Below, piece by piece: positions 22,150 through 57,250 of a stretch of DNA of 64,000 nucleotides. How positions within the stretch are numbered: position 1 is the first letter of the stretch; each line of letters opens with the position of its first letter. The notes beneath the pieces were generated by a model that worked only from the letters and a program-made list of their open reading frames with translations, was not told where the DNA came from and did no database searches. The position numbers were made by a program, and so were the translations under genes. Source of the stretch: an uncultured Poribacteria bacterium (GTDB lineage Bacteria; Poribacteria; WGA-4E; WGA-3G); the NCBI GenBank assembly GCA_958296135.2, contig CATQHZ020000001.1:4896001-4960000 (forward strand). The letters are read 5' to 3'.

Positions 22150-22336
22150 CTCATTGAAAAATCTCCTTTTATTGTGCGCGGGGTTGAGGCACTCGGATTG
22201 GAAACGTAATCTATCTCTCTCTGTCGGCGCGCGTGGTTCGCGCGGGGTTGTGTCAAAACGTTTGTTTTGACGGGTTTGTGTTTATGCGAGGGAGAGGGTT
22301 TTCTCTCTCCCTCGCGCGAGGGGAACAGGGACATCC
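22150..22336 (-). promoter_or_regulatory. Paralog-array spacer fused to a variant of the conserved structured leader
   Basis: GTCAAAACAAACGTTTTGACACAA, then CCCCGCGCG hairpin, AGATTACGTTTCCAATCC, hairpin remnant and AAAAGGAG. Confidence 0.7.
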
Positions 22337-23173
22337 CTATCTTTTCAGACGCGCAACGGCTTCCTTTATGCCCATGGCTATAGGGTACATAATCTCATCG
22401 TTTGCTTGCAGCGCCTCCAATTTCGGCAGGAGGATGTACTCTACAATGCCATCTAATTCCGCACGGTGCTGCGCCCCGATATGGCTTAAGACCTCAGAAG
22501 CTACACTCATGCCCATGCTGCCCAAGTTATCGGGAAATTGCGGCGATGGATCTTCTTCACCTTCACCCATATCGTCCAGATAGGGGATGAGATAGGGGAC
22601 AACGGGCGGCCCCATGGCGATGAGGGCTCTCTGGACATTGCCACTGAATATGTTCTCACCACACTGATATGCGATGAGGGTTTCGATGGACCGCGGGTCG
22701 CGGAGATCGGCGAGTGGGTCTAGCAGGCTGTAGATTTCTTCGGCGTGTGCCTCACCCTCAATCATATCGGGGGGTGGCATCAATTGCTGTATCAGCCCTG
22801 GGGTTCGGGGGTCAGCGGTGCCGCCCCAGGCGAATCGGTTGTCGGCGATGTCGTCAAGTTTGGCCCAGGCTTTGGCGACGGGGTCGTCTGCATCGAGTTC
22901 GTCGAGGTTGCCGGGTTTGACGAGTGCTGGCAGTTCAATATGTTGTTGCCAGTCGACGCTGGGTATCAGGTCGCCGGTGTCGTCATGTGCATCGTCGGCG
23001 GCGGGTTTCCAGTCACCGTCGGGTTTCCCGTGGCCGCCGGGTTGTTCGTCGGCGGGTGGTGGCACGGGGAGTGCTGCGTCAAAGCGCTGCTTCTGCCATT
23101 CGGCGTAGAAGTAGATGGCGAGGCAGAACGCGAGTAGGAGGCATAAGCTGCTGATGAGGGTTTTGGCGTTCAT
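22337..23173 (-). CDS. Membrane-anchored HEAT-like paralog P1 (locus A)
   Basis: N-terminal TM plus YFYAEWQKxxFDAALP; HEAT/PBS-like LRDPRSIETL...ALIAMGPPVVPYLIPYL; AGGAG RBS. Confidence 0.85.
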   Translation of the reverse strand: MNAKTLISSLCLLLAFCLAIYFYAEWQKQRFDAALPVPPPADEQPGGHGKPDGDWKPAADDAHDDTGDLIPSVDWQQHIELPALVKPGNLDELDADDPVAKAWAKLDDIADNRFAWGGTADPRTPGLIQQLMPPPDMIEGEAHAEEIYSLLDPLADLRDPRSIETLIAYQCGENIFSGNVQRALIAMGPPVVPYLIPYLDDMGEGEEDPSPQFPDNLGSMGMSVASEVLSHIGAQHRAELDGIVEYILLPKLEALQANDEIMYPIAMGIKEAVARLKR

Positions 23174-23342
23174 GAGGGTTCTCCTATTGGAAACGTTTTA
23201 TGGCAATCAAGTATCGAGACGCGGGAGTCTCTCCTACCGAAGGGGAGTCGAGACGCGGGAGTCTCTCCTACCGGGCCTCAAGACCTTTTGTCTCTCCTAC
23301 GGGACTCCGCTTCATCTCGGTTTCGACTCCCTAACAACCGCG

Positions 23343-26300
23343 CTACTTATTAACCAGCAGCTGATTAAACAGCGCGCGCGTCGTCTCTGTCCACTTGCCG
23401 TAATCCCTCGAAAACGCTGCATCCGCCGGATTCTCCTCGGTATGCGCATACCCGAGCCGCCGTGCCAACTGTTCTAACTCGGAACGATTCGTGGGTAAGG
23501 CTTCCAACGGCCGGTCATGCACAATCCGCAGCGCGTTCTCGACGCGCCTCAGGTATTGATATGCCTCGGACAATCCCTCTCGCTGTGTCGCTGTCAGCAC
23601 GCCGATGTCGTGCAATCTGTCGACTGCGAAGAGGGTGTTTTGCTCGCGGATCGAAACTGCGTCAGTTCCGTGGACGAGTTGAAGGGTTTGCACGGCGAAT
23701 TCAATGTCAACCAGGCCGCCGTATCCAGATTTGACATTCGGGGCGGGTGCCTTGGTTTGTCCGCGCCGTCTGCGGGGTGTTCTCGGTTTCCGTGTGGCTT
23801 GCGCCTCTTTCCGTTGGCGCGTTCGGACAATTTCGGCGATGCCTTCCGGTGTGAGCGGTGCGCCGTATGCAAACCCGTGTGCGATGTCCAAGAACCGCGC
23901 GCCCACACCCTCGGTGTCTCCCGCGACCGGTCTGGCGCGTGTCAATGCCTGACGTTCCCAGGTCTGCGCCGTGGTGTCGTAGTAGTGCTGGTACCCTTCC
24001 AACGGCAGTGCAATCGCGCCGCCCTTGCCGTGAGGCCGGAGCCTCAGGTCGAGTTCGTAGATACCCATCCCCTGATTTCCCGCGAGTTGCTTTACCAGCT
24101 CCAAGCCGAGGGCGGAGAAATAGTTCGCGTTCGGCGTGCCTTTCGTCGTTTCGCCATCTTCCGAGTAGACGAACATGATGTCCAAATCGGAGCTAAAGTT
24201 GAGCTCGCGGCCGCCAAATTTGCCGAGGGCGATAATCGCGAACGTCACCGGGTTGCCATCGGGATTGCGGGGTATGCCGTGCGCCTCGCGAATCTGCGCT
24301 TCTACCTGCCGGTAGAGAGCCTGTGTGACTGCTTCAGCCAGGTCGGAGAGCTCTGTCGTCGTCGTGGGGAGCGTGGCATTGCCGAGGATATTCCGCAAGG
24401 CGATGCGCCAGATTTCGTCGTTCTTATACCGTCGCAGCAAGGGCAGCATTTTTCCCTCTGGCGCGCTTTCCACAACCTTGAGTGCTTCCGCCTGTTTCTC
24501 CTCAAGCGTCTTGGCGCGTTCTACCAAGTCAGGCACCGTGAGCAGGTCGAAGAGTTCGGGGCTCCCGACGAGGAGCTCGGCAAGATAGAGGCTGGTGCCA
24601 CAGACACCGGTGAGTGTTTCCAGGGTTGAGGGTTTCTCCAAGAACATGGTGTAGTAACTACTGCGTGCGCCGACCTTATCGGCAAAGGCGGAGAGGTAGC
24701 GGAGCGCCATGTCCGGATTGGGTGAATCGCGCAAGATGTTGAGGAGCGTGGGTGCGAGTTTAAAGAAGGAACGCCGCACACTGGGTGAAAACTGGACACC
24801 ATCGCCGCCGTTCGCGAGTCTTTTCAGCAACCGCTGGGCCTCCTTCACACTCTCGAATCCGTAAGAACGGAGGAGTTCATCGAGTTGCTGCGTCTCGTCT
24901 TCCGCGAGCAACACCCCGATGTCCACGCCGGTTTCTTCATGCTGCAGTGCGGTGGCGGTTACCTCTTCAAAGATGGCGCGGACGCGTTCGGTGTGGGCAC
25001 GGTGCTGCCGCCGAAACGCTTCCAATTCATCGCCATCCCTGGTGCTACGATAGCCGGTGCGCCGAGCCAATTCACGCTCTTCTTCCTCCTTGTCGGGAAT
25101 GGAGTACCGCTGCTGGTCTGCCTCAATTTGGATGCGGTGTTCCACGGTGCGCAGGAACCGATACGCGGTTGCGAGTGCTTCTACATCGTCCGAGCTCAGC
25201 AACTGCGCCTCTTCCAACGCCGCAAGCGTCTTCAACGTATTCTGCGAGCACAGCGACTTGCGTCTCCCGCCGTGAATCATCTGGAGACACTGGACGGTAA
25301 ACTCAATATCCCGAATTGCACCGGGACCGAGTTTGACGTGTTTCTGCAGGTTACCCTTTTCACTCACGATGCGTTCTTCAATGCGCGCTTTCGTGCCACG
25401 AATATCCGCCTTAATTTCGCTCAAGGTCACGCCGTCTAAATAGCGTTGATAGACAAACGGTTGGATCATCCGGATGAACTCTTGCCCGAGGGTGTGGACA
25501 TCGCCAGCGACAGGCCGTGCCTTAATCAACGCCTGCCGCTCCCAGAGTTCACCCCAGCCTTCGTAATAACTCTCATAACTTTCCATGGAGCGGGCAATCA
25601 CGCCGGCACTGCTTTCGGGACGGAGGCGGATGTCAACGCGGAAGACGTATCCCTCAGACTTTATCTCGCTCATCGCCTTGATGATAAACTCGCACAACCG
25701 GGCGTAGTATTGATAATTCGGCGTGCCGGTGTCGGTGTAGCCATCGTCGGAATAGACGAAGAGTAGATCGATGTCGGAACTAAAGTTGAGTTCAGAACCG
25801 CCGAGTTTGCCCATGCCAACGACAACGAATTCGGCGGGTGCGGTGCCGTCTTCGTTCAGAGGTGTGCCGAACCTGGCTTTGAGCACGACATCGCGCCCGA
25901 GCTCATAACAGTGCTGTAACGTCGCTTCTGCGAGATTGCTCAACTCTAACGTGACGGTTTCAAGGCTTGCGATTTCGAGCAGGTCGCGTACGCCGATGCG
26001 GAGGCTTTCTAGGCGTTTATAGCGGCGCATCTCGTTGAGTTTACCGTCAAGCTCGGGCACTTCCGCAAGCAGTTCGCCGAGCTCATCGTAATAGAACTGC
26101 TGCGTTTTGGACACTTCCATGATACCGGGGTTCAGGATGTCAAAGAAGAATTCGGGGTTGCGGATGAGGATATCCGACAGGTAAGAGGAGGCACCGAGGC
26201 TCTGCAGCACGCGCCGCGTGAGCTCGGGGGTGTTGACTAAGAGTTCATAGAGCCACTTCTGGCTGAAGGCTGCTTCGGCGAAGCGTGAGAAGTGGTTCAG

Positions 26301-26528: not shown

Positions 26529-26764
26529 GGTTTGCTCCTTTCCGTGCTGTGCGCGGTGGCGCGATTTTAACGATGCATGCATTGTCCTTTCGGGGTGCTG
26601 CTGGATTCCTGTTACACTAAGGTTTTCGCAAAGGTGCAGGACTCACTAACTTTTTTGCGATTTTTCTACAGCACCAACGAAGATGAGGGCCTTTCGACCC
26701 ATTTCTCGGGCGGCTTGCCAGTGTTGGTTTCGTGCCTCCGCGACAGATGGCAGGGTCACGAGCA

Positions 26765-26992
26765 CTAATGTCGGGCCTTCTGGAGAACCTGCCCTATCTG
26801 CTTTGTCAGCAGGCCGGCGCAAAAGCCGACGCAAAAAAGCAGATAGGCGAGGATTGCAATCACGAATGCGGTGACGATGAGACTTGTAACAACACGAGGT
26901 TCTTCAAAAATCTCAACGATACGCGGCAGTCTTGCGCAAAATGCAGCAGCCAAGTACACAAGATACTGGCGCTTCAGTTTAGAAATGAACAC
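26765..26992 (-). CDS. Possible small membrane protein downstream of the conserved leader
   Basis: 75-aa ORF with a hydrophobic segment directly after the leader motif; RBS is weak. Confidence 0.35.
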   Translation of the reverse strand: MFISKLKRQYLVYLAAAFCARLPRIVEIFEEPRVVTSLIVTAFVIAILAYLLFCVGFCAGLLTKQIGQVLQKARH

Positions 26993-26999
26993 AATATTT

Positions 27000-27120
27000 T
27001 TCCGTGCGCGCGTGATGTGCGCGGTTGGTAAACGTTATCTGAAGTCCGCGCGGGGTTGTGTCAAAATTCGTAGTTTTGACAATTATAACTGATTTTAACA
27101 CGAATTGATTTTTTTGTCAA
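27000..27120 (-). promoter_or_regulatory. Promoter plus conserved structured leader
   Basis: TTGACA-17-TAAAAT, then TGTCAAAA/TTTTGACA hairpin, AGATAACGTTTACCAACC and a GCGC hairpin. Confidence 0.7.
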
Positions 27121-27357
27121 GAATAATGCGCGTTAAAATATGCGATTCAGTTGGTAGCGGCGAGAGCCGGGTCCTCGTGCTACGGTTCGGGTTGATGATA
27201 CCGCAGGCATCAAGACGCGGGAGGGCGCGCCTACAAAGCATCGAGACCTTTTGTCTCTCCTACCTGTCTCAAGACTGGGAGGACTCTCCTACCGGATATG
27301 CTGCGATTGCATGGCGGGGGACGGGCCCCCGCCACGCGGGAGTGGCCGGGAGTGCCG

Positions 27358-28161
27358 TTATTGCTTCAGCCGGTCAATTTGTTCCTCCACGTCTTTCCTC
27401 ACATCTGACGAAGATGTGGTTGCGAGTATCTCCTCCAATTTCGGCAGGAGGATGTATTCGACGATGCCATCTAATTCCTCCCGGTGCCGCTTCCCGATAT
27501 TGGCTAAGAAACCCGAGGCTGTAATGAAGCCCAAAAAAGCCTCTCCCTCTCTGGGGGGCTCTTCCTCCAGGTAGGGGAGGAGATAGGGGATGGCGAGCGG
27601 CCCCATGGCGGAGACTGCGGGGCCCAGAGGTGCGTACGCCATGTCACTCCAACAGAGGTAAGCGACGAGGGTTTCGATGGCTCTCGGATCTCGGAGGCGG
27701 ATGAGATCGTCCAGCGGTAGGAGGATTTCTTCTGCGTGTCCGTCATCCTCGATTCCATCGGGTCTCGGCATGAGTTGCGCGATGAGCCCTGGGGTTCGGG
27801 GGTCTGCGGTGCCGCCCCAGGCGAAGGGGTTTTCAGCGAGGGAGTCAACTTTTGCCCAGGCCTTAGCGACAGGGTCGTCTGCATCAAGTTCGTCGAGGTT
27901 GCCGGGTTTGGCGGCTTCGTGCGGCTGGGTGTTCGGTGGTTTCCAGTCAACGCTGGGTATGAGTTCGGTCTCGCCGGTGTCGTCATGTGCATCGTCGGCG
28001 TGCCATTCACCGTCGTGCCAGTGGCCGCCGGGTTGTTCGTCGGCGGGTGGTGGCACGGGGAGTGCTGCGTCAAAGTGCTGCTTCTGCCATTCGGCGTAGA
28101 AGTAGATGGCGAGGCAGAGCGCGAGCAGGATACATAAGCTGCTGATGATTTTGGTTTTCAT
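27358..28161 (-). CDS. Membrane-anchored HEAT-like paralog P2 (locus B)
   Basis: Same architecture as P1; carries the GGHWHDGEWH allele; AGGAG RBS. Confidence 0.85.
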   Translation of the reverse strand: MKTKIISSLCILLALCLAIYFYAEWQKQHFDAALPVPPPADEQPGGHWHDGEWHADDAHDDTGETELIPSVDWKPPNTQPHEAAKPGNLDELDADDPVAKAWAKVDSLAENPFAWGGTADPRTPGLIAQLMPRPDGIEDDGHAEEILLPLDDLIRLRDPRAIETLVAYLCWSDMAYAPLGPAVSAMGPLAIPYLLPYLEEEPPREGEAFLGFITASGFLANIGKRHREELDGIVEYILLPKLEEILATTSSSDVRKDVEEQIDRLKQ

Positions 28162-28315
28162 TTCGGTTCTCCTTTGGAAACGTTTTATAGCAATCAAGTA
28201 TTGAGACGCAGGAGGGCTCTCCTACCGAACGCATCGAGACGCGGGAGGGCGCGCCTACAAAGCATCGAGACCAGGAGGTCTCTCCTACGGGGAGTCGAGA
28301 CTGGGCAGTGGTTGT

Positions 28316-28400
28316 TTCATCGCCCCGGTTGCGGGGAGATGAAGAGGTGTTGTTCGGTGAGCCCTAACGTGATGCGCCGGTCGTCTTTTTCGATATTCAA
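28316..28400 (-). pseudogene. 3' remnant of the gspC-like gene
   Basis: Encodes EKDDRRITLGLTEQHLFISPQP, matching the end of 40935-41417. Confidence 0.7.
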
Positions 28401-28511
28401 ACATTGCTAAAGATGTTCTTTGTTTTAGTCAGTCAGTCAGTCAGTCGGGGCCCCACGAGGGCAGGCTCTCGCGCTACGGACTCAGGGACGGTAGAAAAGG
28501 CAATAGCGTCT

Positions 28512-31528: not shown

Positions 31529-31550
31529 GGTGAGTCCTCTAAAATATGTC

Positions 31551-34095: not shown

Positions 34096-34114
34096 AAATA
34101 AAGGAGATGTTTTT

Positions 34115-35544: not shown

Positions 35545-35966
35545 TACCCACCGAACTCGTTTCTTACACCGTAGGGCGAGGGCCTGTCCCTCGCCATGCT
35601 TAGGGCGTTCCTCATATCGTTTTTTATACCGTAGGGCGAGGGCCTGTCCCTCGCCATGCCCGCCTCCCATATCCAGCCATTCCGAAACAGATAGGACCGG
35701 TTGCGATAATATTCAATTCGCCACCGGTCAAATCCCCGTTCAAATTCAACGACGCGCGCCGGTGGGCCGAGGCGGTGTTGCAAATCTTCAGCCGCCTGCT
35801 TATCGCGCGTAACAAGCGAGTGTGTCAAATAGGCGAGCCCACCGAGGATCCCGACGAGCGTGAGTTTCCCTCTATTTTTCGCCGAAAGGAATCCTTCTGC
35901 TTGTGGGATGCCGCCTAAAAAAAGGAAGGCGATGAGGAAGAGGCAAACTGTTTTTTTAGGTTTCAT
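35280..35966 (-). CDS. Small secreted or membrane protein whose frame runs through REPs into the antisense of the neighbouring gene
   Basis: The first ~100 aa look protein-like (signal peptide, TM). They are followed by MARDRPSPYG twice, which is REP-encoded, and a 265-bp antisense overlap. The true 3' end is uncertain. Confidence 0.5.
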   Translation of the reverse strand: MKPKKTVCLFLIAFLFLGGIPQAEGFLSAKNRGKLTLVGILGGLAYLTHSLVTRDKQAAEDLQHRLGPPARVVEFERGFDRWRIEYYRNRSYLFRNGWIWEAGMARDRPSPYGIKNDMRNALSMARDRPSPYGVRNEFGGYYRYAFLREPHVVAALPFASTASPSIWIFRSLSVGRRTFAASSAVALTFDVTNSASSIVASSRTAMRRTVSPAFANFHSRSNVPPSSQ

Positions 35967-36324
35967 CCGGTTTCTGACGCTCCTGCATGGCGAGGCACAA
36001 GGCCGCGCCCTACGGTAAAGGGAAGGTTTTCGTAATCGAGAGACCGCGAGGCACAAGGCCGCGCCCTACGGTAAAGGGGAGGTTTTCGTGATCGAGAGTC
36101 TGGCGCGAGCTGTTCCCATTCGGCGATGATGGTTTTTCCATCGTCGGGCGGTTGGCTGCACCGCTAGTGCGAGTGTGGTGGAAAAACCATAGGGGACTCT
36201 GGCCCAAAAAGCGAGTCCTCGCCGCCGTGCTCTTGGACAAATTCACGCTTCTTCTCCAGATACACATCGTTCCCTGGATGCGGATAGAGTTGTGCTTGAA
36301 GTTCCGCGTGCCTTGGGACGCGGT

Positions 36325-36415
36325 TTCTGTGAAAAAATCGCGTTAAAAGTTGCGATTTCTATCAACTTCGTATTAAGAATACCACATTATTGTTCGTTTG
36401 TCTGTCAAATTAAAA
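36325..36415 (-). promoter_or_regulatory. Near-identical copy of the promoter region at 41505-41590
   Basis: Shares TCTGTGAAAAAATCGCGTTAAAAGTTGCGATTTCTATCAACTTCGTATTAA...CACATTATTGTTCGTTTGTC. Confidence 0.7.
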
Positions 36416-36507
36416 TGCGGAAAAATTGAAGAAAGTTGCTGCGTACGCTTCTGCTTGAAAAGCGAGGAGCCACAAGAGGACAGCGATGGGGAGAATCAAT
36501 GTGTGTT

Positions 36508-36981
36508 TCATTGTTGTCCTCCCCTGTAGACGCGTGGCGGCCGTCGTGGCGGCCTTTTTGCGTCATGGGCTCTGCTCCTTTCCCACCAATCCTCCTGCTT
36601 TTGCATGTGTGTCTTTAGTTTTTCAGCGAAGGCTAGCCGTTCTTCGGGCATCATGTTGGCGATGCGTTGGTGCTCCTCTGCGACGCGTTTGTTTATCATT
36701 TCAATACCGCCTTCACCGCTTATATGAGGAAAAGGATCCTCTCGGTCCAATAACTCCCCTTCGGCTCTCAGTATGATTTCTTTTTCTGCCCATGCGCGGT
36801 ATTCGGGGGAATAACCCTTCGTGCTTCGGATGACCCGCAACCGTTCGACGTATTCCGGGGTTGCGAGGATGTCCTCTAGCGATGCATCAAATTCCTGCTT
36901 CTGCCATTCGGCCCAGAAGTAGATGCCGGTGCAGAAAGCGATGAGGATGGCTATCGCGATAACCGGGTTTTTCGGGTTCAT
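36508..36981 (-). CDS. Membrane-anchored protein sharing only the N-terminal anchor with the paralog family
   Basis: IAILIAFCTGIYFWAEWQKQEFDASL followed by an unrelated helical region; GGAG RBS behind the conserved leader. Confidence 0.75.
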   Translation of the reverse strand: MNPKNPVIAIAILIAFCTGIYFWAEWQKQEFDASLEDILATPEYVERLRVIRSTKGYSPEYRAWAEKEIILRAEGELLDREDPFPHISGEGGIEMINKRVAEEHQRIANMMPEERLAFAEKLKTHMQKQEDWWERSRAHDAKRPPRRPPRVYRGGQQ

Positions 36982-36994
36982 TATCAAATTCTCC

Positions 36995-37130
36995 ATTGCG
37001 CGCTTTTGATGGCGCGCGGTTGGTAAACGTTATCTATATCTCTCTGTCGGCGCGAGTGGTTCGCGCGGGGTTGTGTCAAAATGGATTTGACAGGTTAAAG
37101 TTGATTTTAACACGCATTGATTTTTTCTGA
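36995..37130 (-). promoter_or_regulatory. Conserved structured leader with a promoter-like element
   Basis: TAAAAT box, TGTCAAA/TTTGACA hairpin, CGCG hairpin, AGATAACGTTTACCAACC, GCGCGC hairpin and RBS. Confidence 0.7.
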
Positions 37131-37194
37131 AGAAAAGTACGCGTTAAAATGTGTGATGGGCGGATAGAAATATCCACCCTGACAGATTGCGCGT

Positions 37195-38013
37195 CTACTT
37201 TTTGAGTTGGCGGATGGCCTCCTTCACTCGTCTGCTCCTGGGATCCTCCGCCAGTATCCGCTCGAGTTTTGGCAGGATGATGTGTGCCACGATGCCGTCT
37301 AAGTCTGACCGGTGCTGTGTGCCAACCTGCCTTAGGATTCTAGCAGCGTTCGCCACGCCTCTGGTATAATGTTCGTCCCCTTCTTTCAAATCCAGATAGG
37401 GGATGAGGTAGGGAACAGATGGGGGTCCCATGGCGACGAGTGCTTCGGTGAGAGGGCTGCCTCCAATAGGGCTCTCAACCTGATAAGCGACGAGGATTTC
37501 AATGGAGCGGGGATCGCGGAGGGGACAGAGTGCCTCCATCAACATGACGATTTCTTCGGTATTGTCGTCAGGGCCCCCTTCGTAGCCAAGGTTCACCGGT
37601 GGTGGTGTCAATTGCGCGATGAGTGCTGGGGTTCGGGGGTCTGCGGTGCCGCCCCAGGCGAAGGGATTTTCCATAATATAGTCAAGTTTGGCCCAGGCTT
37701 TGGCAACCGGGTCCTCGGCATCAAGTTCGGCGAGGTTTTCGGGTTTGCTTGCCTCGTGCGGGCTGCCGGTGCTGGGTGGTTTCCAGTCGTCGCTGGGTAT
37801 GAGTTCGGTCTCGCCGGTGTCGTTATTGTGTGCATCGTCGGCGGGTTTCCAGTCACCGTCGGGTTTCCCGTGGCCGCCGGGTTGTTCGTCGGCGGCGGGT
37901 GGCACGGGGAGTGCTGCGTCGAATTGTGCTTTCTGCCATTCAGCATAGAAGTAGATGGCGAGGCAGAGCGCGAGCAGGATGCAGATTGCGCTGATGATAG
38001 TTTTGCCGTTCAT
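37195..38013 (-). CDS. Membrane-anchored HEAT-like paralog P3 (locus C)
   Basis: Family motifs present; variable blocks are divergent. Confidence 0.85.
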   Translation of the reverse strand: MNGKTIISAICILLALCLAIYFYAEWQKAQFDAALPVPPAADEQPGGHGKPDGDWKPADDAHNNDTGETELIPSDDWKPPSTGSPHEASKPENLAELDAEDPVAKAWAKLDYIMENPFAWGGTADPRTPALIAQLTPPPVNLGYEGGPDDNTEEIVMLMEALCPLRDPRSIEILVAYQVESPIGGSPLTEALVAMGPPSVPYLIPYLDLKEGDEHYTRGVANAARILRQVGTQHRSDLDGIVAHIILPKLERILAEDPRSRRVKEAIRQLKK

Positions 38014-38127
38014 TTGGGTTCTCCTATTGGAAACGTTTTTGTGTCAAAACGTTTGTTTTGACGGGTTGGTGTTTATGCGAGGGAGAGGGTTTTCTCTCTC
38101 CCTCGCGCGAGGGGAACAGGGACATCC

Positions 38128-38961
38128 CTATCTTTTCAGACGCGCAACGGCTCCCTTTATGCCCATGGCTATAGGGTACATAATCTTATCGTTTGCTTGC
38201 AGCGCCTCCAATTTCGGCAGGAGGATGTACTCTACAATGCTATCTAATTCCGCACGGTGCTGCGCCCCGATATGGCCTAAGACCTTAGAAGCTACACTCA
38301 TGCCCCTGCTGCCCAAGTTATCGGGAAATTGCGGCGATGGATCTTCTTCACCTTCACCCATATCGTCCAGATAGGGGATGAGATAGGGGACAACGGGCGG
38401 CCCCATGGCGATGAGGGCTCTCTCAACATTGCCACTCATTATGTTCCCACCACACTGATATGCGATGAGGGTTTCGATGGACCGCGGGTCGCGGAGATCG
38501 GCGAGTTCGTCTAGCAAGGCACCGATTTCTTCTGCATGGGCCTCGCTCTCAAGATAGTCAACTATCGGTGTCAATTGTTGGACGAGCCCTGCGGTTCGGG
38601 GGTCTGCGGTGCCGCCCCAGGCGAAGGGGTTTTCCATAATATAGTCAAGTTTGGCCCAGGCCTTGGCGATGGGGTCGGCTGCATCGAGTTCGTCGAGGTT
38701 GCCGGGTTTGACGAGTGCTGGCAGTTCAATATGTTGTTGCCAGTCGACGCTGGGTATCAGGTCGCCGGTGTCGTCATGTGCATCGTCGGCGGGTTTCCAG
38801 TCACCGTCGGGTTTCCCGTGGCCGCCGGGTTGTTCGTCGGCGGCGGGTGGCACGGGGAGTGCTGCGTCGAATTGTGCTTTCTGCCATTCAGCATAGAAGT
38901 AGATGGCGAGGCAGAGCGCGAGTAGGATGCAGATTGCGCTGATGAGGGTTTTGGCGTTCAT
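38128..38961 (-). CDS. Membrane-anchored HEAT-like paralog P4 (locus C)
   Basis: Middle block matches P6; C-terminal block matches P1/P5. Confidence 0.85.
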   Translation of the reverse strand: MNAKTLISAICILLALCLAIYFYAEWQKAQFDAALPVPPAADEQPGGHGKPDGDWKPADDAHDDTGDLIPSVDWQQHIELPALVKPGNLDELDAADPIAKAWAKLDYIMENPFAWGGTADPRTAGLVQQLTPIVDYLESEAHAEEIGALLDELADLRDPRSIETLIAYQCGGNIMSGNVERALIAMGPPVVPYLIPYLDDMGEGEEDPSPQFPDNLGSRGMSVASKVLGHIGAQHRAELDSIVEYILLPKLEALQANDKIMYPIAMGIKGAVARLKR

Positions 38962-40029: not shown

Positions 40030-40830
40030 CTATCTTTTGAGCCGGGCGATGGCCTCCTCCAAGTCCCGTACTCGAATCTCTGTAGGGAATGGATCTGTAA
40101 GTGCCAGCCCCAATTGTTTCTCCAATTTTGGCAGGATGATGTGTTTGACGATACCGTCTAACTCCACCCGGTGCCGGGCCCCGATATGGCCCAAGACATG
40201 AGGGGCAACATACACGCCCATGGCCTCATCGTCCTCTTCGTCCAGATAGGGGATGAGGTAGGGGACAACGGGCGGCCCCATGGCGATGAGGGCTTCGCTG
40301 ACAGGGGCAGTTCCTATGTTACCCCCACACTGATAAGCGACGAGGGTTTCGATGGACCGCGGGTCGCGGAGATAGGCGAGTTCGTCTAGCAAGGCACCGA
40401 TTTCTTCTGCATGGGCCTCGCTCTCAAGATAGTCAACTATCGGTGTCAATTGTTGGACGAGCCCTGGGGTTCGGGGGTCTGCGGTGCCGCCCCAGGCGAA
40501 GGGATTTTCCATAATATAGTCAAGTTTGGCCCAGGCTTTGGCGACGGGGTCGTCTGCATCGAGTTCGTCGAGGTTGCCGGGTTTGACGAGTTCTGGCAGT
40601 TCAATATGTTGTTGCCAGTCGACGCTGGGTATCAGGTCACCGGTGTCGTTATGTGCATCGTCGGCGTGCCATTCACCGTCGTGCCAGTGGCCGCCGGGTT
40701 GTTCGTCGGCGGCGGGTGGCACGGGGAGTGCTGCGTCGAATTGTGCTTTCTGCCATTCGGCGTAGAAGTAGATAGCAAGGCAGAGCGCGAGCAGGAGGCA
40801 TATTGCGCTGATGAGGGTTTTGGCGTTCAT
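40030..40830 (-). CDS. Membrane-anchored HEAT-like paralog P6 (locus C)
   Basis: GGHWHDGEWH allele; C-terminal block shared with P7 and P9. Confidence 0.85.
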   Translation of the reverse strand: MNAKTLISAICLLLALCLAIYFYAEWQKAQFDAALPVPPAADEQPGGHWHDGEWHADDAHNDTGDLIPSVDWQQHIELPELVKPGNLDELDADDPVAKAWAKLDYIMENPFAWGGTADPRTPGLVQQLTPIVDYLESEAHAEEIGALLDELAYLRDPRSIETLVAYQCGGNIGTAPVSEALIAMGPPVVPYLIPYLDEEDDEAMGVYVAPHVLGHIGARHRVELDGIVKHIILPKLEKQLGLALTDPFPTEIRVRDLEEAIARLKR

Positions 40831-40934
40831 GAGGGTTCTCCTTTGGAAACGTTTTATAGCAATCAAGTCGAGACCAGGAGGGCTCTCCTACAAGAGGGCC
40901 TCGAGACCTTTTGTCTCTCCTACAGGACTCCGCT

Positions 40935-41417
40935 TCATCTCGGGTGCGGGGAGATGAAGAGGTGTTGTTCGTTGAGACCTAACGTGATGCGCCGGTTGTC
41001 CTTTTCAAGGACGACCTGTTTAGGGGCAATCATAACCAAGCACCAGCCGTTTTGGGACACATCATCGAGCGTGACGAAGTGAATCTGTTGCGTGTCGACC
41101 GCTTTCAAGACAGCTTGATAGTGATTGCGTTCGTCTATCAAGATAGTTCCGACGAGGTGGAAGGGGACATCGCTTTTGGGTTCGGGCTTCCAACCGAGGG
41201 GTCGGAACAGGTTATTGTCGATAATCACCTGATAGTGTTCGGGGAGTTCTTCGCCCCATTCGGATGCGCGTGTGCTTTCAGGTGATATTTGGGTGTCGGT
41301 TTCGGGTGGCTCTACGGGTAACGTCCGTTTCGGTTGAGGTTGTTCCCGTGTGATGAGTAGGCCGCCGCTTATCACGAGCAGCAGCATCGCGATGGATGCG
41401 GCGAGGGTTTTCATCAC
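40935..41417 (-). CDS. GspC/PilP-like bitopic protein (T2SS protein C HR-domain-like)
   Basis: N-terminal TM, IIDNNLFRP, FHLVGTIL, QAVL and IAPKQVVLEKD..RITL pattern; AAGGAG RBS. Confidence 0.6.
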   Translation of the reverse strand: MMKTLAASIAMLLLVISGGLLITREQPQPKRTLPVEPPETDTQISPESTRASEWGEELPEHYQVIIDNNLFRPLGWKPEPKSDVPFHLVGTILIDERNHYQAVLKAVDTQQIHFVTLDDVSQNGWCLVMIAPKQVVLEKDNRRITLGLNEQHLFISPHPR

Positions 41418-41429
41418 GGTTTGATTTCT

Positions 41430-41590
41430 CCTTTTGTTGGGCGCGTGGCTGAGGCGCGCGGTTGGTAAACGTTATCTATGGACCGAGCGAACGTTTCGCG
41501 CGGTTCTGTGAAAAAATCGCGTTAAAAGTTGCGATTTCTATCAACTTCGTATTAATTGTCCCACATTATTGTTCGTTTGTCAAATTAAAA
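41430..41590 (-). promoter_or_regulatory. Promoter plus conserved leader heading locus C
   Basis: TTGACA box, CCG..CGG hairpin, AGATAACGTTTACCAACC, GCGCG hairpin and RBS. Confidence 0.65.
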
Positions 41591-41760
41591 TTGAAAAATG
41601 AGGAAAATGTGACTTTTTTGTTTAAACCTTGACAAAAAGATATTTTTCGTGTATTCTATCCTGAAGTATGATTTTTGTATTGCCCAGCAGTGGTTTCGCT
41701 GTATCTGTGCAGGAAACGTTACGCCTGGCGACAATACAAAAACGTTGGAGCGTGATTGGC

Positions 41761-43455: not shown

Positions 43456-43462
43456 GGGTGAA

Positions 43463-53574: not shown

Positions 53575-53859
53575 GGCATTCTGTTCATTGAAACATGGGG
53601 AGCCGAATTGTCCCCTGGAGACTGCGAGGGACAGACCCCCGCGCTACGGTATGAAAACGGGTTTAAAAATGGGACGAAATTCGCCCCCGAATTCGCGGTT
53701 TAACAGATTAGACGCAGAACTCTGAAAAAGGTTGAAAAAAAGTATCAATTCTCTATCGGGCTGCTCAAACTTTTTTCACGATGCGTGCATAACCTTTTAA
53801 AATGTTGCCGGAGCGGTGTGACGCTCGGGTCTTCGCAAGGTCAGGAGGTTATGCACATT

Positions 53860-54032
53860 TTATTGTGCGCGTTGGTTAGGCACGCGGTTGGTAAACGTTA
53901 TCTCTATCTCTCTGTCGGCGCGAGGGGTTCGCGCGGGGTTGCGTCAAAACGTTTGTTTTCACAGATTGGTGTTTATGCGCGGGAGAGGGTTTCTCTCTCC
54001 CACGCGCGAGGGTCAGAGCCGGGGTGGCGGCC
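53860..54032 (-). promoter_or_regulatory. Paralog-array spacer fused to the conserved leader
   Basis: AAAACAAACGTTTTGACGCAA, CCCCGCGCG hairpin, AGATAACGTTTACCAACC and GCGT/ACGC hairpin. Confidence 0.7.
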
Positions 54033-54842
54033 CTATCTTTTGAGCCGGGCGATGGCCTCCTCCAAGTTCCGTATTCGAATCTCTGTAGGGAATGGATCTG
54101 TAAGTGCCAGACCCAATTGTTTCTCCAATTTTGGCAGGATGATGTGTTTGACGATACCGTCTAACTCCACCCGGTGCCGGGCCCCGATATGGCCCAAGAC
54201 ATGAGGGGCAACATACACGCCCATGGCCTCATCGTCCTCTTCGTCCAGATAGGGGAGGAGGTAGGGGACAACGGGCGGGCCCATGGCGATGAGGGCTTCG
54301 CGGACAGGGGCAGTTCCTATCTTACCCCCACACTGATAAGCGACGAGGGTTTCGATGGACCGCGGGTCGCGGAGATAGGCGAGTTCGTTTAGCAAGTCGC
54401 CGATTTCTTCTGCATGGGCCTCGCTCTCAAGAGAGTCGACTATCGGTGTCAATTGTTGGACGAGCCCTGGGGTTCGGGGGTCTGCGTTGCCGCCCCAGGC
54501 GAAGGGGTTGTCGGCGATTTCGTCAAGTTGTGCCCAGGCTTTGGCAACCGGGTCTTCGGTGTCTGCCTCGGCGAGGTTTTCGGGTTTGCTTGCCTCGTGC
54601 GGGCTGCCGGTGCTGGGTTTCCAGTCAACGCTGGGTATCAGGTCACCGGTGTCGTTATCGTGTGCATCGTCGGGTTTCCAGTCACCGTCGGGTTTCCCGT
54701 GGCCGCCGGTTTCGGTGTCATCGGCGGGTGGTGGCACGGGGAGTGCTGCGTCGAATTGCTGCTGCCAGTCGGCGTAGAAGTAGAGGGCGAGGCAGAGCGC
54801 GAGCAGGAGGCAGATTGCGCTGATGAGGGTTTTGCCGTTCAT
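54033..54842 (-). CDS. Membrane-anchored HEAT-like paralog P7 (locus D)
   Basis: Family motifs; linker like P3 and C-terminus like P6. Confidence 0.85.
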   Translation of the reverse strand: MNGKTLISAICLLLALCLALYFYADWQQQFDAALPVPPPADDTETGGHGKPDGDWKPDDAHDNDTGDLIPSVDWKPSTGSPHEASKPENLAEADTEDPVAKAWAQLDEIADNPFAWGGNADPRTPGLVQQLTPIVDSLESEAHAEEIGDLLNELAYLRDPRSIETLVAYQCGGKIGTAPVREALIAMGPPVVPYLLPYLDEEDDEAMGVYVAPHVLGHIGARHRVELDGIVKHIILPKLEKQLGLALTDPFPTEIRIRNLEEAIARLKR

Positions 54843-54958
54843 GAGGGTTCTCCTTTGGAAACGTTTTTGTGTCAAAACGTTTGTTTTGACGGATTGGTAT
54901 TTATGCGTGGGAGAGGGTTTCTCTCCCGCGCGCGACGGTAACTGTCGGAGTTATGTCC

Positions 54959-55753
54959 CTATTGTTTGAGGGCGACGATGGCCTCCTTCACGCGCCCCTG
55001 CTTATAAGAGCTTATAAATCCCTCTGCGAGCAGCTGCTCGAATCTTGGGAGGATAATGTGTTCGACGATACCGTCTAGGTCTGCCCGGTGCTGGGTCCCG
55101 ATTGCGCTTAAGATCCTGGCGGCTTTCAGTACGCCCTTAGAACCTTTTTTCTCCTTAAGTGCCTCGTCCAGATAGGGGACGAGGTGTGGGACCACGGGGG
55201 GGCCCAGGGCGATGAGGGTTTGGGTAGCAAGGCCGGAGCTCATGCCGCTGTCGCATTGATAGGCGACGAGTGCCTCAATGGCGTTGGGATCTCGGAGTTT
55301 GGCGAGATCCGTCAGCACGAAGCTGAGGTCCATTGCGTGTGCTTCGCTCCTCATTCCCCTGGGTGGCGGCCATTCGAGTTGCGCGATGAGTTCGTCGGTT
55401 TGGGGGTGTGCGGTTCCTCCCCATGCGAATCGGTTCTCGGCGATTTCGTCGAGTTTTGCCCAGGCTTTAGCGATGGGGTCGTCTGGGTCGAGTTCGCCGA
55501 GGTTTTCGGGTCTGACGAGTTCTCGCGGTTCGATATGTTGTTGCCAGTCGTCGCTGGGTATCAGGTCACCGGTGTCGTTATCGTGTGCATCGTCGCCGGG
55601 TTTCCCGTGGCCGCCGGGTTGTTCGTCGGCGGCGGGGGGTGGCACGGGGAGTGCTGCGTCGAATCGCTGCTGCTGCCAGTCGGCGTAGAAGTAGAGGGCG
55701 AGGCAGAACGCGAGTAGGAGGCAGATTGCGCTGATGAGGGTTTTGCCGTTCAT
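54959..55753 (-). CDS. Membrane-anchored HEAT-like paralog P8 (locus D)
   Basis: Family motifs; unique variable blocks. Confidence 0.85.
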   Translation of the reverse strand: MNGKTLISAICLLLAFCLALYFYADWQQQRFDAALPVPPPAADEQPGGHGKPGDDAHDNDTGDLIPSDDWQQHIEPRELVRPENLGELDPDDPIAKAWAKLDEIAENRFAWGGTAHPQTDELIAQLEWPPPRGMRSEAHAMDLSFVLTDLAKLRDPNAIEALVAYQCDSGMSSGLATQTLIALGPPVVPHLVPYLDEALKEKKGSKGVLKAARILSAIGTQHRADLDGIVEHIILPRFEQLLAEGFISSYKQGRVKEAIVALKQ

Positions 55754-55928
55754 GAGGGTTCTCCTTTGGAAACGTTTTTGTGTCAAAACGTTTGTTTTGA
55801 CGGGTTTGTGTTTATGTGTGGGAGAGGGTTTCTCTCCCGCGCGCGACGGTAATGGTACCGCAGGCATCGAGACCGGGAGGGCTCTCCTACCGGGCCCGCG
55901 CGCGATGGTGAGGGCCGGGGTGGTGGCC

Positions 55929-56747
55929 CTATCTTTTGAGCCGGGCGATGGCCTCCTCCAAGTCCCGTATTCGAATCTCTGTAGGGAATGGATCTGTAAG
56001 TGCCAGCCCCAATTGTTTCTCCAATTTTGGCAGGATGATGTGTTTGACGATACCGTCTAACTCCACCCGGTGCTGGGCCCCGATATGGCCCAAGACATGA
56101 GAGGCAACATACACGCCCATGGCCTCATCGTCCTCTTCGTCTAGATAGGGGAGGAGGTAGGGGACAACGGGCGGCCCCATGGCGATGAGGGCTTCGCGGA
56201 CAGGGGCAGTTCCTATCTTACCCCCACACTGATAAGCGACGAGGGTTTCGATGGACCGCGGGTCGCGGAGATAGGCGAGTTCGTTTAGCAGTCCCAAGAT
56301 TTCTTCTGCATGGGCCTCGCTCTCAAGATAGTCAACTATCGGTGTCAATTGTTGGACGAGCCCTGGGGTTCGGGGGTCTGCGGTGCCGCCCCAGGCGAAG
56401 GGATTTTCGGCGAGTTCGTCAAGTTTTGCCCAGGCTTTGGCAACCGGGTCCTCGGTGTCTGCCTCGGCGAGGTTTTCGGGTTTGCTTGCCTCGTGCGGGC
56501 TGCCGGTGCTGGGTTGCCAGTCGTCGCTGGGGATGAGTTCAGTTTCACCGGTGTCGTCATGTGCATCGTCGGCGGGTTTCCATTCGCCATCAGGTTTCCC
56601 GTGGCCGCCGGTTTCGGTGTCATCAGCGGGTGGTGGCACGGGGAGTGCTGCGTCGAATCGCTGCTGCTGCCAGTCGGCGTAGAAGTAGAGGGCGAGGCAG
56701 AGCGCGAGGAGGAGGCAGATTGCGCTGATGAGGGTTTTGCCGTTCAT
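55929..56747 (-). CDS. Membrane-anchored HEAT-like paralog P9 (locus D)
   Basis: Close to P7 and P6. Confidence 0.85.
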   Translation of the reverse strand: MNGKTLISAICLLLALCLALYFYADWQQQRFDAALPVPPPADDTETGGHGKPDGEWKPADDAHDDTGETELIPSDDWQPSTGSPHEASKPENLAEADTEDPVAKAWAKLDELAENPFAWGGTADPRTPGLVQQLTPIVDYLESEAHAEEILGLLNELAYLRDPRSIETLVAYQCGGKIGTAPVREALIAMGPPVVPYLLPYLDEEDDEAMGVYVASHVLGHIGAQHRVELDGIVKHIILPKLEKQLGLALTDPFPTEIRIRDLEEAIARLKR

Positions 56748-56904
56748 GAGGGTTCTCCTATTGGAAACGTTTTATAGCAATCAAGTCGAGACCAGGAGGT
56801 CTCTCCTACCGAAGGGAAGTCGAGACCGGGAGGTCTTTCCTACAAGCGAGGTCTCTCCTACAAGAGGGCATCGAGACCGGGAGGGCTCTCCTACGGGACT
56901 CCGC

Positions 56905-57112
56905 TTCATCTCGGTTGCCAGGAGATGAAGAGGTGTTGTTCGTTGAGCACTAACGTGATGCGCCGGTTGTCCTTTTCAAGGACGACCTGTTTGGGTGCAA
57001 TCATAACCAAACGCCAGCCGTTTTGGGACACATCATCGAGCGTGACGAAGTGAATCTGTTGCGTGTCGACAGATTTCAAGACGGCTTGATAGTGATTGCG
57101 TTCGTCTTTGCG
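56905..57112 (-). pseudogene. 5'-deleted copy of the gspC-like gene
   Basis: The RBS region GGAGAAATCAAACCG is joined almost directly to DERNHYQAVLK...EQHLFIS; the start codon and 5' half are missing. Confidence 0.8.
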
Positions 57113-57114
57113 GT

Positions 57115-57250
57115 TTGATTTCTCCTGGTGCGTGGGTTAGGTGCGCGGTTGGTAAACGTTATCTACGGGCCGCGTGATCGATTTCGCGCGGGTGCTGTGA
57201 AAAATTGCAATCATGTTTAAATGATACCACATTTTTGCTCGTTTGCCAAG
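57115..57250 (-). promoter_or_regulatory. Promoter plus conserved leader heading locus D
   Basis: TTGGCA...TATCAT, CCGCG/CGCGG hairpin and AGATAACGTTTACCAACC. Confidence 0.65.

Follow-up and report, generated by a model that had tools for sequence, protein, structure and literature searches.

The window analysed here, a stretch of 64,000 nucleotides, carries mosaic membrane-anchored HEAT-like paralogs, and the question raised by this locus is whether they form a system of combinatorial diversification comparable to antigenic-variation cassettes, as the initial annotation proposed. Ordinary gene-family evolution was preferred as the best explanation as a whole, with a probability of about 75%: 11 copies in five old subfamilies exchange sequence from copy to copy, and a repertoire of related membrane-tethered binders would arise passively, with no variation machine dedicated to it. 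The protein family itself was previously unstudied.

Gene copies, protein architecture and partner gene

The open reading frames and translations confirmed nine intact paralogs on the minus strand in the layout 1+1+4+3, with the count and places first noted (Table 1). Counted from the homologous Met, the proteins P1-P9 are 264-278 aa long; the ORF list starts P2 with TTG at 28197 (homologous Met at 28161), P6 at 40866, P7 at 54875 and P8 at 55867. The genome search revealed two more full-length copies outside the window, X1 (C1:3557269-3558054) and X2 (C1:2755-3567), which gave 11 full-length copies at six loci. All 11 are intact and separately translatable, each with its own Shine-Dalgarno sequence. 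P2 shares 66-71% nt identity with all other copies.

Table 1. Positions of family genes, neighbouring genes, blocks absent in congeners and repeats in the window (paralog coordinates include the stop codon)
Feature	Position	Strand	Description
P1	22337..23173	-	278 aa, HEAT-like, P5 type; 96% nt identity to P5
P2	27358..28161	-	267 aa from homologous Met; only member of its type in the genome
P3	37195..38013	-	272 aa, P3/X2 type; 97% nt identity to X2
P4	38128..38961	-	Chimera: start P3-like, middle P6-like, end P5-like
P5	39076..39912	-	Reference paralog for structure and searches
P6	40030..40830	-	First gene of four-gene array; P6/P7/P9/X1 type
P7	54033..54842	-	P6-type paralog
P8	54959..55753	-	Only member of its type in the genome
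P9	55929..56747	-	P6 type; first gene of three-gene array
ORF160	40935..41417	-	Membrane-anchored, PilP/GspC-HR-like beta domain (AF2 model); directly upstream of P6
N-module gene downstream of P3	36508..36996	-	Family-like anchor module only; different, coiled-coil-like C-terminal part
P1 block	22138..23329		1192 bp; absent in G002 (20 bp) and G001 (about 123 bp)
P2 block	26559..28491		1933 bp; absent in G002 (159 bp)
N-module gene + P3-P6 + ORF160 block	35964..41603		5640 bp; absent in G002 (95 bp)
P7-P9 block	53658..57591		3934 bp; absent in G002 (469 bp)
Spacer palindrome GTCAAAAC-GTTT-GTTTTGAC	38043..38062, 22252..22271, 38991..39010, 54871..54890, 55782..55801		
REP-like palindromic repeat cluster	56786..56894		Upstream of P9
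Similar REP-like clusters	about 23174..23329, 28196..28288, 40868..40924		Upstream of P1, P2 and P6, respectively

Based on the models, the proteins are predicted to consist of three parts, namely an N-terminal membrane anchor, a disordered linker that is acidic and rich in proline and histidine, and, at the C-terminus, a HEAT/ARM-like alpha-solenoid spanning about 180 aa. The anchor claimed at the outset was recovered as a predicted helix at residues 3-34. The HEAT-like fold also gained support: Pfam HEAT_PBS matched below the gathering cut-off in five of the nine copies, the family profile matched the CpcF lyase (E 2.3e-4), and structural matches (VIA) reached Z 8-10 to HEAT/ARM/TOG proteins and Z 8.4 to 5n3u_B. 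Because of the charge distribution, the solenoid is predicted to face the periplasm, and the protein is probably anchored in the inner membrane rather than exposed on the cell surface; our best guess for the family is a periplasm-facing HEAT/ARM-like binder. Of the variable blocks first noted, two fall in the disordered linker and a third in a low-confidence loop, which speaks against the diversification reading. Like the PBS-lyase HEAT-like proteins (PF03130; CpcE/CpcF, PDB 5n3u), the family has a helical-repeat solenoid, but it differs from them in its sub-cut-off Pfam score and in carrying a membrane anchor and linker. As phycobiliproteins are not known from Poribacteria, activity as a lyase is improbable.

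The family is restricted to Poribacteria. Twelve of 24 further genomes from the same taxonomic family carried it, as did none of the 16 genomes of three sister families, with copy numbers of 0 to 11 across related genomes. Among 42 related loci, 38 were titled Poribacteria and 4 'uncultured bacterium', and 107 cluster representatives of 1.84 billion were matched at E <= 0.001.

Within the close subfamily ORF160 is the conserved partner gene, and the founding unit consists of a family gene plus a PilP/GspC-HR-like gene. The matches listed by Foldseek for the ORF160 model (11 rows, within ranks 1-12) were all PilP, GspC-HR, PulC or LspC. Its N-terminal membrane helix, disordered linker and small beta domain are those of PilP/GspC, and the beta domain superposes on the PilP and GspC/PulC HR domains with an rmsd of 2.4-2.8 A over about 69 residues. 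However, ORF160 reached no sequence-family threshold (GspC_delta E 0.12), and unlike PilP/GspC of the type IV pilus and type II secretion it lies away from the genome's one secretin gene and is paired with a HEAT-like gene. Twelve ORF160 homologs were found on the same contig as family homologs, and P9, X2, X1 and P2 each have a remnant of the ORF160 3' end upstream. Since the founding unit includes this partner, a role of the family proteins in the cell envelope is suggested, perhaps next to the only secretin machine of the cell.

Mosaic structure and age of the gene segments

All motif assignments made initially were borne out in the translations: GGHWHDGEWH in P2 and P6; QQHIE in P1, P4, P5, P6 and P8; STGSPHEASKPENL in P3, P7 and P9; TPIVD.LESEAHAEEI in P4, P6, P7 and P9; MPPPDMIEGEAH in P1 and P5; DDMGEGEEDPSPQF in P1, P4 and P5; and EEDDEAMGVYV in P6, P7 and P9. 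The motifs behind the pattern of constant and variable blocks therefore stood, but the sharpness of the contrast had been overstated, because 127 of the 183 solenoid columns differ among the 11 copies. P4 proved to be a chimera as described, identical to P3 over nt 45-183, to P6 over nt 395-501 and to P5 over nt 495-714 (aligned nt).

Segmental conversion or recombination between copies was found to be real by the PHI and AU tests, the breakpoint scan and the identical tracts. The mosaic far exceeds what chance would give: with 291 informative sites, PHI gave a z of about -21, compared with a mean z of -0.22 and a minimum of -2.77 in 30 single-tree simulations run with matched site rates. A single tree for all blocks was rejected, as each of the four segments rejected the ML trees of the other three (AU, p <= 2e-4); the segment borders were picked after data inspection, which is partly answered by an unbiased breakpoint scan that placed the main break at ungapped nt 300, with a gain of 70 log-likelihood units for two topologies. 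For the whole-gene tree the outcome was uneven: segments A and B rejected it, C did so only marginally (p 0.0145), and D did not. Tracts of 100-250 nt with 100% identity join otherwise divergent copies, and the partners switch along the gene; the tract joining P7 and X1, which lie 1.39 Mb apart, measures 250 nt. PHI was also significant in the related genomes G005, G015 and G014 (without simulation control).

In a tree built from 84 solenoid sequences, the copies of this genome grouped with outsiders in five clades (supports 1.0, 1.0, 0.96, 0.85 and 0.12), and their common ancestor covered 82 of the 84 tips. What looked like "alleles" in the C-terminal two thirds are thus five old subfamilies that predate the split from the nearest sequenced congener and whose closer relatives, for each of them, are found in other organisms; the median inter-type dS of the 3' part was 0.80, and the backbone dS against the congener G002 was 0.40-0.58 (six genes). 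Over the anchor and disordered linker, 10 of the 11 own copies formed an exclusive genome-specific clade (support 0.997), and the median inter-type dS of the 5' part (300 nt) was 0.33, below that of the 3' part in 45 of 45 pairs. The solenoid of P8 shares 87% identity with the outsiders P0045, P0074 and P0053 and 53% with own copies of other types, while its N-terminal part shares 56% with these outsiders and 77% with own other-type copies. GHGKP was found in 0 of 83 foreign homologs and the GHWH form in 62 of 83. The same trend appeared elsewhere: in G014 all 4 N-terminal parts, but none of the 4 solenoids, had their nearest neighbour in that same genome, and in G015 N-terminal parts reached up to 95% identity where solenoids shared 69-72%. 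The exchange mainly homogenises the N-terminal third, a case of concerted evolution, with few true chimeras such as P4.

Assembly, mobility and diversification as alternatives

It was considered highly improbable that the copy number and the chimeras are assembly artefacts of strain mixing or mis-joined repeats. The source is a metagenome-assembled genome with an estimated contamination of 3.6%, the short-read contigs of four runs end at repeats and leave the arrays unbridged, and the array order rests on the deposited contig; but the copies sit within a 5.0-Mb contig, three other genomes, including one that is a single 4.0-Mb contig, also have arrays with recombination signal, and at least two family ORFs were present at 18 of the 42 related loci. 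In all four runs, which represent one sample, a P2-specific 595-nt contig was recovered at backbone depth (22/121/112/40 vs 20/122/107/40), and the P3/X2-type contig had about twice that depth, matching two copies. The position of the genes poses another question. The congener G002 lacks all six own family loci at the syntenic positions, so the units move or turn over, and the site corresponding to G002's single copy is empty in this genome. A difference at seven of seven loci between two congeners exceeds usual passive duplication and hints at a mobility mechanism. The units might be cargo of an unrecognised mobile process that inserts copies of an ORF160 remnant, REP-like repeats and N-module gene(s) at intergenic hot spots rich in REP repeats, perhaps aided by the Y1 (RAYT/IS200-like) transposases of the genome; we regard this as unlikely. 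REP-like repeats and an ORF160 remnant precede every first-of-array gene, P2 is bordered by such repeats on either side, and the genome has 212 REP-like copies in total along with two Y1_Tnp genes, but spacers rich in REP repeats abound in it, so that the proximity may be chance, and the Y1_Tnp genes lie more than 100 kb away. The empty P2 site of G002 holds GTAGGAGAGCCCTCCCTGTCTCGA, which is REP-like by eye with a regex count of zero, while its empty site for the four-gene array has no REP-like copy; the equivalent of 35964..41603 in G001 bears 3.6 kb of other genes, including a different N-module-like gene. The 5' truncation points vary and the 3' ends differ, leaving no defined element termini, and no target-site duplication was seen at P1. 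The spacer palindrome of Table 1 has five copies genome-wide, every one in family spacers.

Programmed or selected diversification, in which exchange is favoured for new binding-surface combinations, for example in the recognition of phage or of a sponge host, after the manner of multi-locus antigen families, was judged quite improbable. Four-gamete block combinations do exist (the first two blocks show them in P1, P2, P3 and P6), as does the P4 chimera, and the copy number varies widely among related genomes. The dN/dS of the family (0.3-0.6) was about three times higher than that of backbone genes (0.09-0.19), which fits relaxed constraint as well as partial diversifying selection, but it stays below 1. 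Near-identical tracts showed nonsynonymous:synonymous ratios of 10:1 (P1-P5), 6:0 (P4-P5) and 8:1 (P6-X1, segment D), small counts from pairs that are not independent, and this excess could reflect positive selection after duplication. According to PMC8163846, sponge-associated genomes are enriched in HEAT-kind repeat proteins, and Poribacteria rank among the richest. Against this stand the main signal, which is homogenisation of anchor and linker and not solenoid shuffling, the old solenoid types common to other organisms, and the predicted periplasmic, inner-membrane-tethered site. As first remarked, the window holds no recombinase or reverse transcriptase; genome-wide, RVT_1 and tyrosine recombinase gave no match, and none of the three resolvase genes lies in the window. 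No partial or silent cassettes were present in the genome, no phase-variation-type repeat tracts were found, and in place of a G4 element of the pilE kind one G4-like motif was found, inside P8 only. Taken with the dN/dS values, these results did not sustain the comparison to antigenic-variation cassettes.

The pilE/pilS, vlsE/vls and msp2 systems use one expression site with promoterless partial donors, and pilE also a G4 element; opa genes are phase-variable by a pentamer repeat, and their products are surface-exposed outer-membrane barrels under immune selection. Segmental non-reciprocal transfer among related sequences is common to the former and to the present family, but their single expression site, partial donors and G4 element are all missing here. 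Like the multi-locus opa family of Neisseria (PMC13183285, PMC2265424), the present family has several intact dispersed loci, no silent-cassette archive and inter-locus mosaic alleles. Unlike opa, it has no repeat tract and a predicted inner-membrane tether, and the exchanged part is a conserved module and not a set of hypervariable loops.

Under ordinary gene-family evolution, homologous recombination, for which RecA is present in the genome, would act on the 11 copies. Interlocus gene conversion would overwrite the 5' third again and again, giving a concerted anchor and linker and genome-only alleles such as GHGKP, and rare conversion or unequal crossing-over within the solenoid would give chimeras such as P4. 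By segmental duplication, units would be copied out of the arrays, together with stretches of varying length from the 3' end of the upstream gene, and land in intergenic sites rich in REP-like repeats, giving the 1+1+4+3 layout missing in congeners. Interlocus gene conversion leading to concerted evolution of prokaryotic paralogs is a general phenomenon (PMC6053082, PMC8223754). The present family shares its marks: over part of the gene same-genome paralogs are closer to each other than to their orthologues, the identical tracts end sharply, and RecA-type recombination is at hand with no dedicated machinery. Differently from that general picture, conversion here is confined to anchor and linker in 11 copies at six loci and in five old subfamilies, and it reaches genes with unrelated C-terminal domains. 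Eleven other genes in the genome have the N-terminal module alone in common with the family, and the module in genes with unrelated C-terminal domains shows up to 98% nt identity.

Mosaic copies and evidence for recombination

The nine HEAT-like paralogs (P1-P9) were found on the minus strand in the 1+1+4+3 arrangement described by the initial annotation, and all nine were intact where it had placed them. Every motif listed there was recovered by translation in precisely the copies named for it. The proteins were 264-278 aa long when counted from the homologous start codon, and GGAGA lay 7-8 nt 5' of the ATG in all 11 full-length copies of the genome, that is, P1-P9 and the two copies X1 and X2 outside the window (see table). 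The main contig, C1, on which the window spans 4896001-4960000, comprised 5.01 Mb of the 5.19-Mb genome, the completeness of which was 94.7%. If C1 were circular, 10 of the 11 copies would be confined to some 97 kb (C1:4918340 via the contig end to 3567), or roughly 2% of the chromosome. Short-read contigs (one sample, four runs) were fragmented at the family repeats; the joints listed had 20-32-nt sides at REP-like repeats and were thus uninformative as to alternative chimeras.

Recombination between the copies was tested in several ways. A PHI test written for the purpose gave z = -21 across 291 informative sites. For 30 control alignments generated by simulation from one ML tree, in which the empirical per-site rates were preserved in position and rate heterogeneity was thereby controlled, the mean z was -0.22 and the minimum -2.77, compared with -19.5 for the real data under the same settings. 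In the AU test, based on four segments (A-D) picked after data inspection, each segment rejected the ML trees of the three others (p <= 2e-4), and the whole-gene tree was rejected by A and B, marginally by C (p 0.0145), but not by D. In an unbiased single-breakpoint scan the main break fell at nt 300 (ungapped), with a gain of 70 log-likelihood units for two topologies over one with free branch lengths. Additionally, 85 pairwise identical fragments exceeded the global 95% permutation threshold in a GENECONV-like scan, those at aligned nt 670-693 being shared gaps that are to be disregarded. One fragment of 250 nt was shared by P7 and X1, the loci of which are 1.39 Mb apart. P4, which had been proposed to be a chimera, shared identical fragments of 139 nt with P3, 107 nt with P6 and 220 nt with P5, and proved to be one. 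Taken together, PHI, AU tests, breakpoint scan and identical tracts bore out the proposed segmental recombination or gene conversion between copies, and the genome holds several intact loci with mosaic alleles from inter-locus recombination. PHI was also significant, here without simulation control, in three other family-bearing genomes (G005, z -5.8; G015, -36.6; G014, -18.8).

Coordinates of copies, blocks, repeats and associated genes (positions in the window unless preceded by a contig name; G001 and G002 are congeneric genomes)
Feature	Coordinates	Remark
X1, full-length copy outside the window	C1:3557269-3558054	
X2, full-length copy outside the window	C1:2755-3567	
P1 block	22138-23329	1192 bp here, 20 bp at the G002 site
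P2 block	26559-28491	1933 bp here, 159 bp at the G002 site
Block of N-module gene, P3-P6 and ORF160	35964-41603	5640 bp here, 95 bp at the G002 site
P7-P9 block	53658-57591	3934 bp here, 469 bp at the G002 site
P3-P6 array site in G001 (L092)	G001:C121:5900-9900	3.6 kb of other genes
REP-like clusters upstream of the first genes of the loci	23174-23329, 28196-28288, 40868-40924, 56786-56894	
Perfect 8-4-8 palindrome GTCAAAAC GTTT GTTTTGAC	22252-22271, 38043-38062, 38991-39010, 54871-54890, 55782-55801	
ORF160	40935-41417	
N-module gene in the window	36508-36996	adjoins P3
N-module genes elsewhere	C1 ~2402.3-2405.0 kb, 538.3-539.6 kb, 463 kb, 1113 kb	
Only secretin gene of the genome	C1:3183907-3184437	
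Ig-like protein gene	44803-53574 (-)	2923 aa
Gene without Pfam match	31551-32156 (-)	201 aa
AAA_35 ATPase gene	20446-22146 (-)	PDDEXK_9-tailed

Old solenoids and a homogenised anchor-linker module

The solenoid tree included the 11 own copies and 73 homologs from other organisms, which remained from 83 after sequences shorter than 230 aa, or without any difference from an own copy, had been removed. The own copies fell into five clades, P1/P4/P5, P6/P7/P9/X1, P3/X2, P8 and P2 (support 0.96, 0.85, 1.0, 1.0 and 0.12, respectively), each with foreign relatives, and their common ancestor covered 82 of the 84 tips. When the tree was built from residues 1-95, every own copy except P2 (10 of 11) joined one exclusive clade with a support of 0.997. 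The contrast was clearest for P8: identity of the solenoid was 87% to the foreign clade-mates against 53% to the other own types, and the corresponding values for the N-terminal part were 56% and 77%. Between types, the median dS was 0.33 over the first 300 nt of the alignment but 0.80 over the rest, and the 5' value was below the 3' value in 45 of 45 inter-type pairs. The likeness of the N-terminal parts is therefore not explained by constraint at the protein level.

The linker motifs were distributed in a similar way. GHGKP was absent from all 83 foreign homologs, 62 of which carried the GHWH..EWH form retained by P2 and P6; judged by this distribution, GHGKP is an allele specific to this genome that has spread through four of the five types. 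QQHIE was found among the 83 in three homologs only, P0045, P0053 and P0079, the last of which (179 aa) was not in the tree. Because P0045 and P0053 are clade-mates of P8, the motif distribution suggests that QQHIE passed from the P8 type to other types. The same tendency was detected in other genomes: in G014 the nearest neighbour lay in the same genome for four of four N-terminal parts and for none of four solenoids, and in G015 N-terminal identity reached 95% where the solenoids were 69-72% identical. Given the trees, the dS contrast, the motif spread and these other genomes, the exchange acts mainly to keep the anchor-linker module evolving in concert, and solenoid chimeras arise occasionally. 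Both signs of concerted evolution by gene conversion were observed, namely closeness of the paralogs in the converted part and rejection of a single tree. Overall, a Poribacteria family that is as yet uncharacterised shows concerted evolution combined with duplication. This provides a clear example of domain-limited concerted evolution, in which a module is homogenised over 11 copies and even over genes with unrelated C-termini.

Six backbone genes compared with G002 showed a dS of 0.40-0.58 and a dN/dS of 0.09-0.19. Since the inter-type dS of the solenoids, which reaches 1.3 in the final segment, equals or exceeds the backbone dS, the family types are older than the split from G002. A recent burst from one gene might be imagined from the single copy carried by G002, and was ruled out by the solenoid tree and the dS comparison. 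The dN/dS of the family was 0.3-0.6, a value below 1 but indicating weaker constraint than in the backbone genes. In recently shared tracts, the ratios of nonsynonymous to synonymous changes were 10:1, 6:0 and 8:1; these small and dependent counts hint at selection, or at relaxation following copying.

The initial annotation had gone further and proposed a diversification system analogous to antigenic-variation cassettes. This part was not upheld, as concerted evolution of the anchor-linker module dominates and the corresponding machinery was not found. Cassette-type antigenic variation uses one expression locus and promoterless partial donors, whereas here all 11 copies were full-length, and no C-terminal-only fragments or partial cassettes were detected genome-wide (tblastn E 1e-3, blastn E 1e-5). 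With regard to a diversity-generating retroelement, RVT_1 was absent from the 94.7%-complete genome. For a shufflon or invertase, no Phage_integrase match was found in the genome and none of its three resolvase genes lay in the window, in agreement with the earlier remark that no dedicated recombinase or reverse transcriptase is visible in the window; the nine window copies also all share one strand. Unlike opa-like phase-variable families, which have a switching repeat tract, the 11 units with 250 nt upstream of each contained no homopolymer longer than 7 nt and no repeat of more than four units. The only G4-like motif was inside P8, with none beside the arrays, the inverted-repeat search of the array gave one weak pair, and the promoter and terminator scan was not usefully above the shuffled expectation. 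RecA was present in the genome. The finding reveals no new variation mechanism. As a separate observation, Phage_integrase (tyrosine recombinase, XerC/D-type), for which the 94.7%-complete genome gave no match, was present in 14 of 14 control genomes.

The family was present in 12 of 24 other genomes of the same taxonomic family and in none of 16 genomes from three sister families, with 0 to 11 full-length copies per genome (one in G002, none in G001). The species-genome collection contained 42 related loci, 38 of them titled Poribacteria and four "uncultured bacterium"; at least two family ORFs were found at 18 of the 42, which indicated that tandem arrays are common. A search of 1.84 billion cluster representatives yielded 107 at E <= 0.001. 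These results, which are relevant to sponge-symbiont genomics, define a Poribacteria-only protein family in which a His/Pro/acidic linker connects the anchor to a HEAT-like solenoid.

Protein fold, ORF160 and the wider N-terminal module

The AlphaFold2 model of P5, built from a 50-sequence alignment (mean pLDDT 85), began with a long hydrophobic helix (residues 3-34), which was followed by disorder over residues 35-95 (pLDDT 45-50) and by an all-helical domain (residues 96-278). Pfam HEAT_PBS (PF03130) matched five of the nine window copies at 13.7-17.2 bits (E 0.0074-0.097), below the gathering cut-off of 20.9 bits, and was absent from the other four. With the family profile (50 members), E was 2.3e-4 for 5n3u_B (CpcF, a phycocyanobilin lyase subunit) and 0.007 for an alphaRep, which points weakly to a specific similarity with a solved PBS-lyase HEAT-like protein. 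Foldseek searches of the P5 model against PDB gave designed armadillo proteins as top matches (E 0.012) and nothing at E <= 0.001; VIA-align Z was 8-9.8 to HEAT/TOG/ARM proteins (8.4 to CpcF), short of the value of about 13 advised for helical repeats. "HEAT-like solenoid" is thus a reasonable description of the fold and not a statement of family membership. The protein atlas returned unnamed clusters and HEAT leads (scores 0.88-0.91), NCBIfam gave sub-threshold matches only, and PADLOC and PHROGs had no match for four paralogs, ORF160 or an N-module gene. The family carries neither name nor function in the libraries searched, its cluster members being likewise nameless, and no literature on it was found under Poribacteria with HEAT repeat or gene conversion.

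Few basic residues precede the anchor helix and acidic residues come after it, so an N-in, C-out topology is predicted, which would place the solenoid in the periplasm. Cys17 was conserved in 11 of 11 copies and in 10 of 11 genes sharing only the N-terminal module. The residue preceding it was L or F, a poor fit to the usual lipobox required for lipidation.

In the protein encoded by ORF160, the gene directly upstream of P6, a disordered linker joins a membrane helix to a beta domain, and only this domain (residues 80-150) was modelled with confidence. All Foldseek matches listed (ranks 1-12, 11 rows) were PilP, GspC-HR, PulC-HR or LspC, with a best E of 7e-4 and an rmsd of 2.4-2.8 A over about 69 residues, and the beta domain is accordingly assigned an HR-domain fold. 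Against NCBIfam GspC_delta, ORF160 scored 12 bits, below the sequence-family cut-off of 150. The only secretin gene is about 1.75 Mb away, hence ORF160 does not belong to a secretin operon. Twelve of 25 foreign ORF160 homologs (E <= 2e-33) were matched to family homologs by an equal length of the longest contig; as these included contigs of 1.9-4.8 kb, the pair of HEAT-like gene and ORF160 is conserved in the close subfamily. Among distant relatives, an ORF160-like gene lay within 3 kb at 4 of 42 loci. A role beside a secretin machine is a lead and not an established result.

Eleven further genes of the genome matched the family over the first 40-65 residues only. They share the anchor, the EWQK..FDASLP.PP motif and the His-rich linker, and have at least three other C-terminal types; eight of eight of the proteins had no Pfam match at E <= 0.01. 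The N-terminal module is exchanged between families too: the first 196-215 nt of the gene at C1 ~2402.4 kb were 96-98% identical to two genes with unrelated C-termini, and 5' ends this similar were shared by neighbouring genes. A broader reading, which we regard as rather unlikely, would be that Poribacteria own a cassette-like envelope superfamily in which conversion keeps the anchor-linker uniform within each genome for docking one shared partner, perhaps a PilP/GspC-like protein and a secretin machine. The C-terminal domains, of the HEAT-like and at least three further types, would then be interchangeable and be copied into REP-rich intergenic hot spots. If true, strains would differ from one another in the set of periplasmic or secreted-substrate adaptors that they carry.

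Chromosomal position, spacer repeats and neighbouring genes

A 32-kb stretch of G002 was collinear with window positions 18930-59969 at 78-90% identity and lacked all four family loci; the syntenic G002 sites were also without X1 and X2. The flanks of the sole G002 copy matched C1 at about 776-792 kb, where our genome has no copy. P1 was absent from G001, which had about 123 bp at that junction, and the P3-P6 array site of G001 was occupied by other genes. Family genes therefore wholly shift chromosomal position between congeneric genomes. Two proteins encoded at the G001 site were of 634 aa with a HEFGH zincin motif, and of 462 aa with an N-module-like anchor and a His-rich linker. The P3-P6 site is a possible hot spot for genes of this kind.

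REP-like palindromes and a remnant of the 3' end of ORF160 were found upstream of every first-of-array gene, the remnants varying in length (66, 51 or 23 residues; for P1, about 20 nt). The P1 block ends within the 5' leader of a next gene, indicating that it was copied out of an array. Neither target-site duplication nor common termini were seen at the family loci. We read this pattern as duplication of segments, whose ends vary from case to case, into spacers rich in REP-like repeats; a dedicated mobility process is conceivable.

The REP-like palindrome (GTAGGAGAG.C....G.TCTCGA) occurred in 212 copies on C1 and in none on contigs C2-C4. A second palindromic family (GCGAGGGACAG..CCCTCGCGCTACGG) gave rise to RDRPSPYG-like peptides in spurious ORFs, and its depth in short-read contigs was about 50 times that of the backbone. 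Elsewhere the genome carries two Y1_Tnp genes. The perfect 8-4-8 palindrome had five copies genome-wide, all in family spacers, where it closely precedes the ribosome-binding site of genes inside the arrays, a position in which it could serve as an operator or RNA-processing hairpin.

The neighbours in the window were housekeeping or envelope genes, including GlnE, NadA, an outer-membrane-like protein and a GFO/IDH oxidoreductase. The 2923-aa protein of bacterial Ig-like domains contained several long, near-identical internal repeats and is likely prone to recombination as well. The 201-aa gene and the AAA_35 ATPase gene each had dozens of paralogous DNA matches in G002, tandem runs included, and are further expanded families of this lineage.
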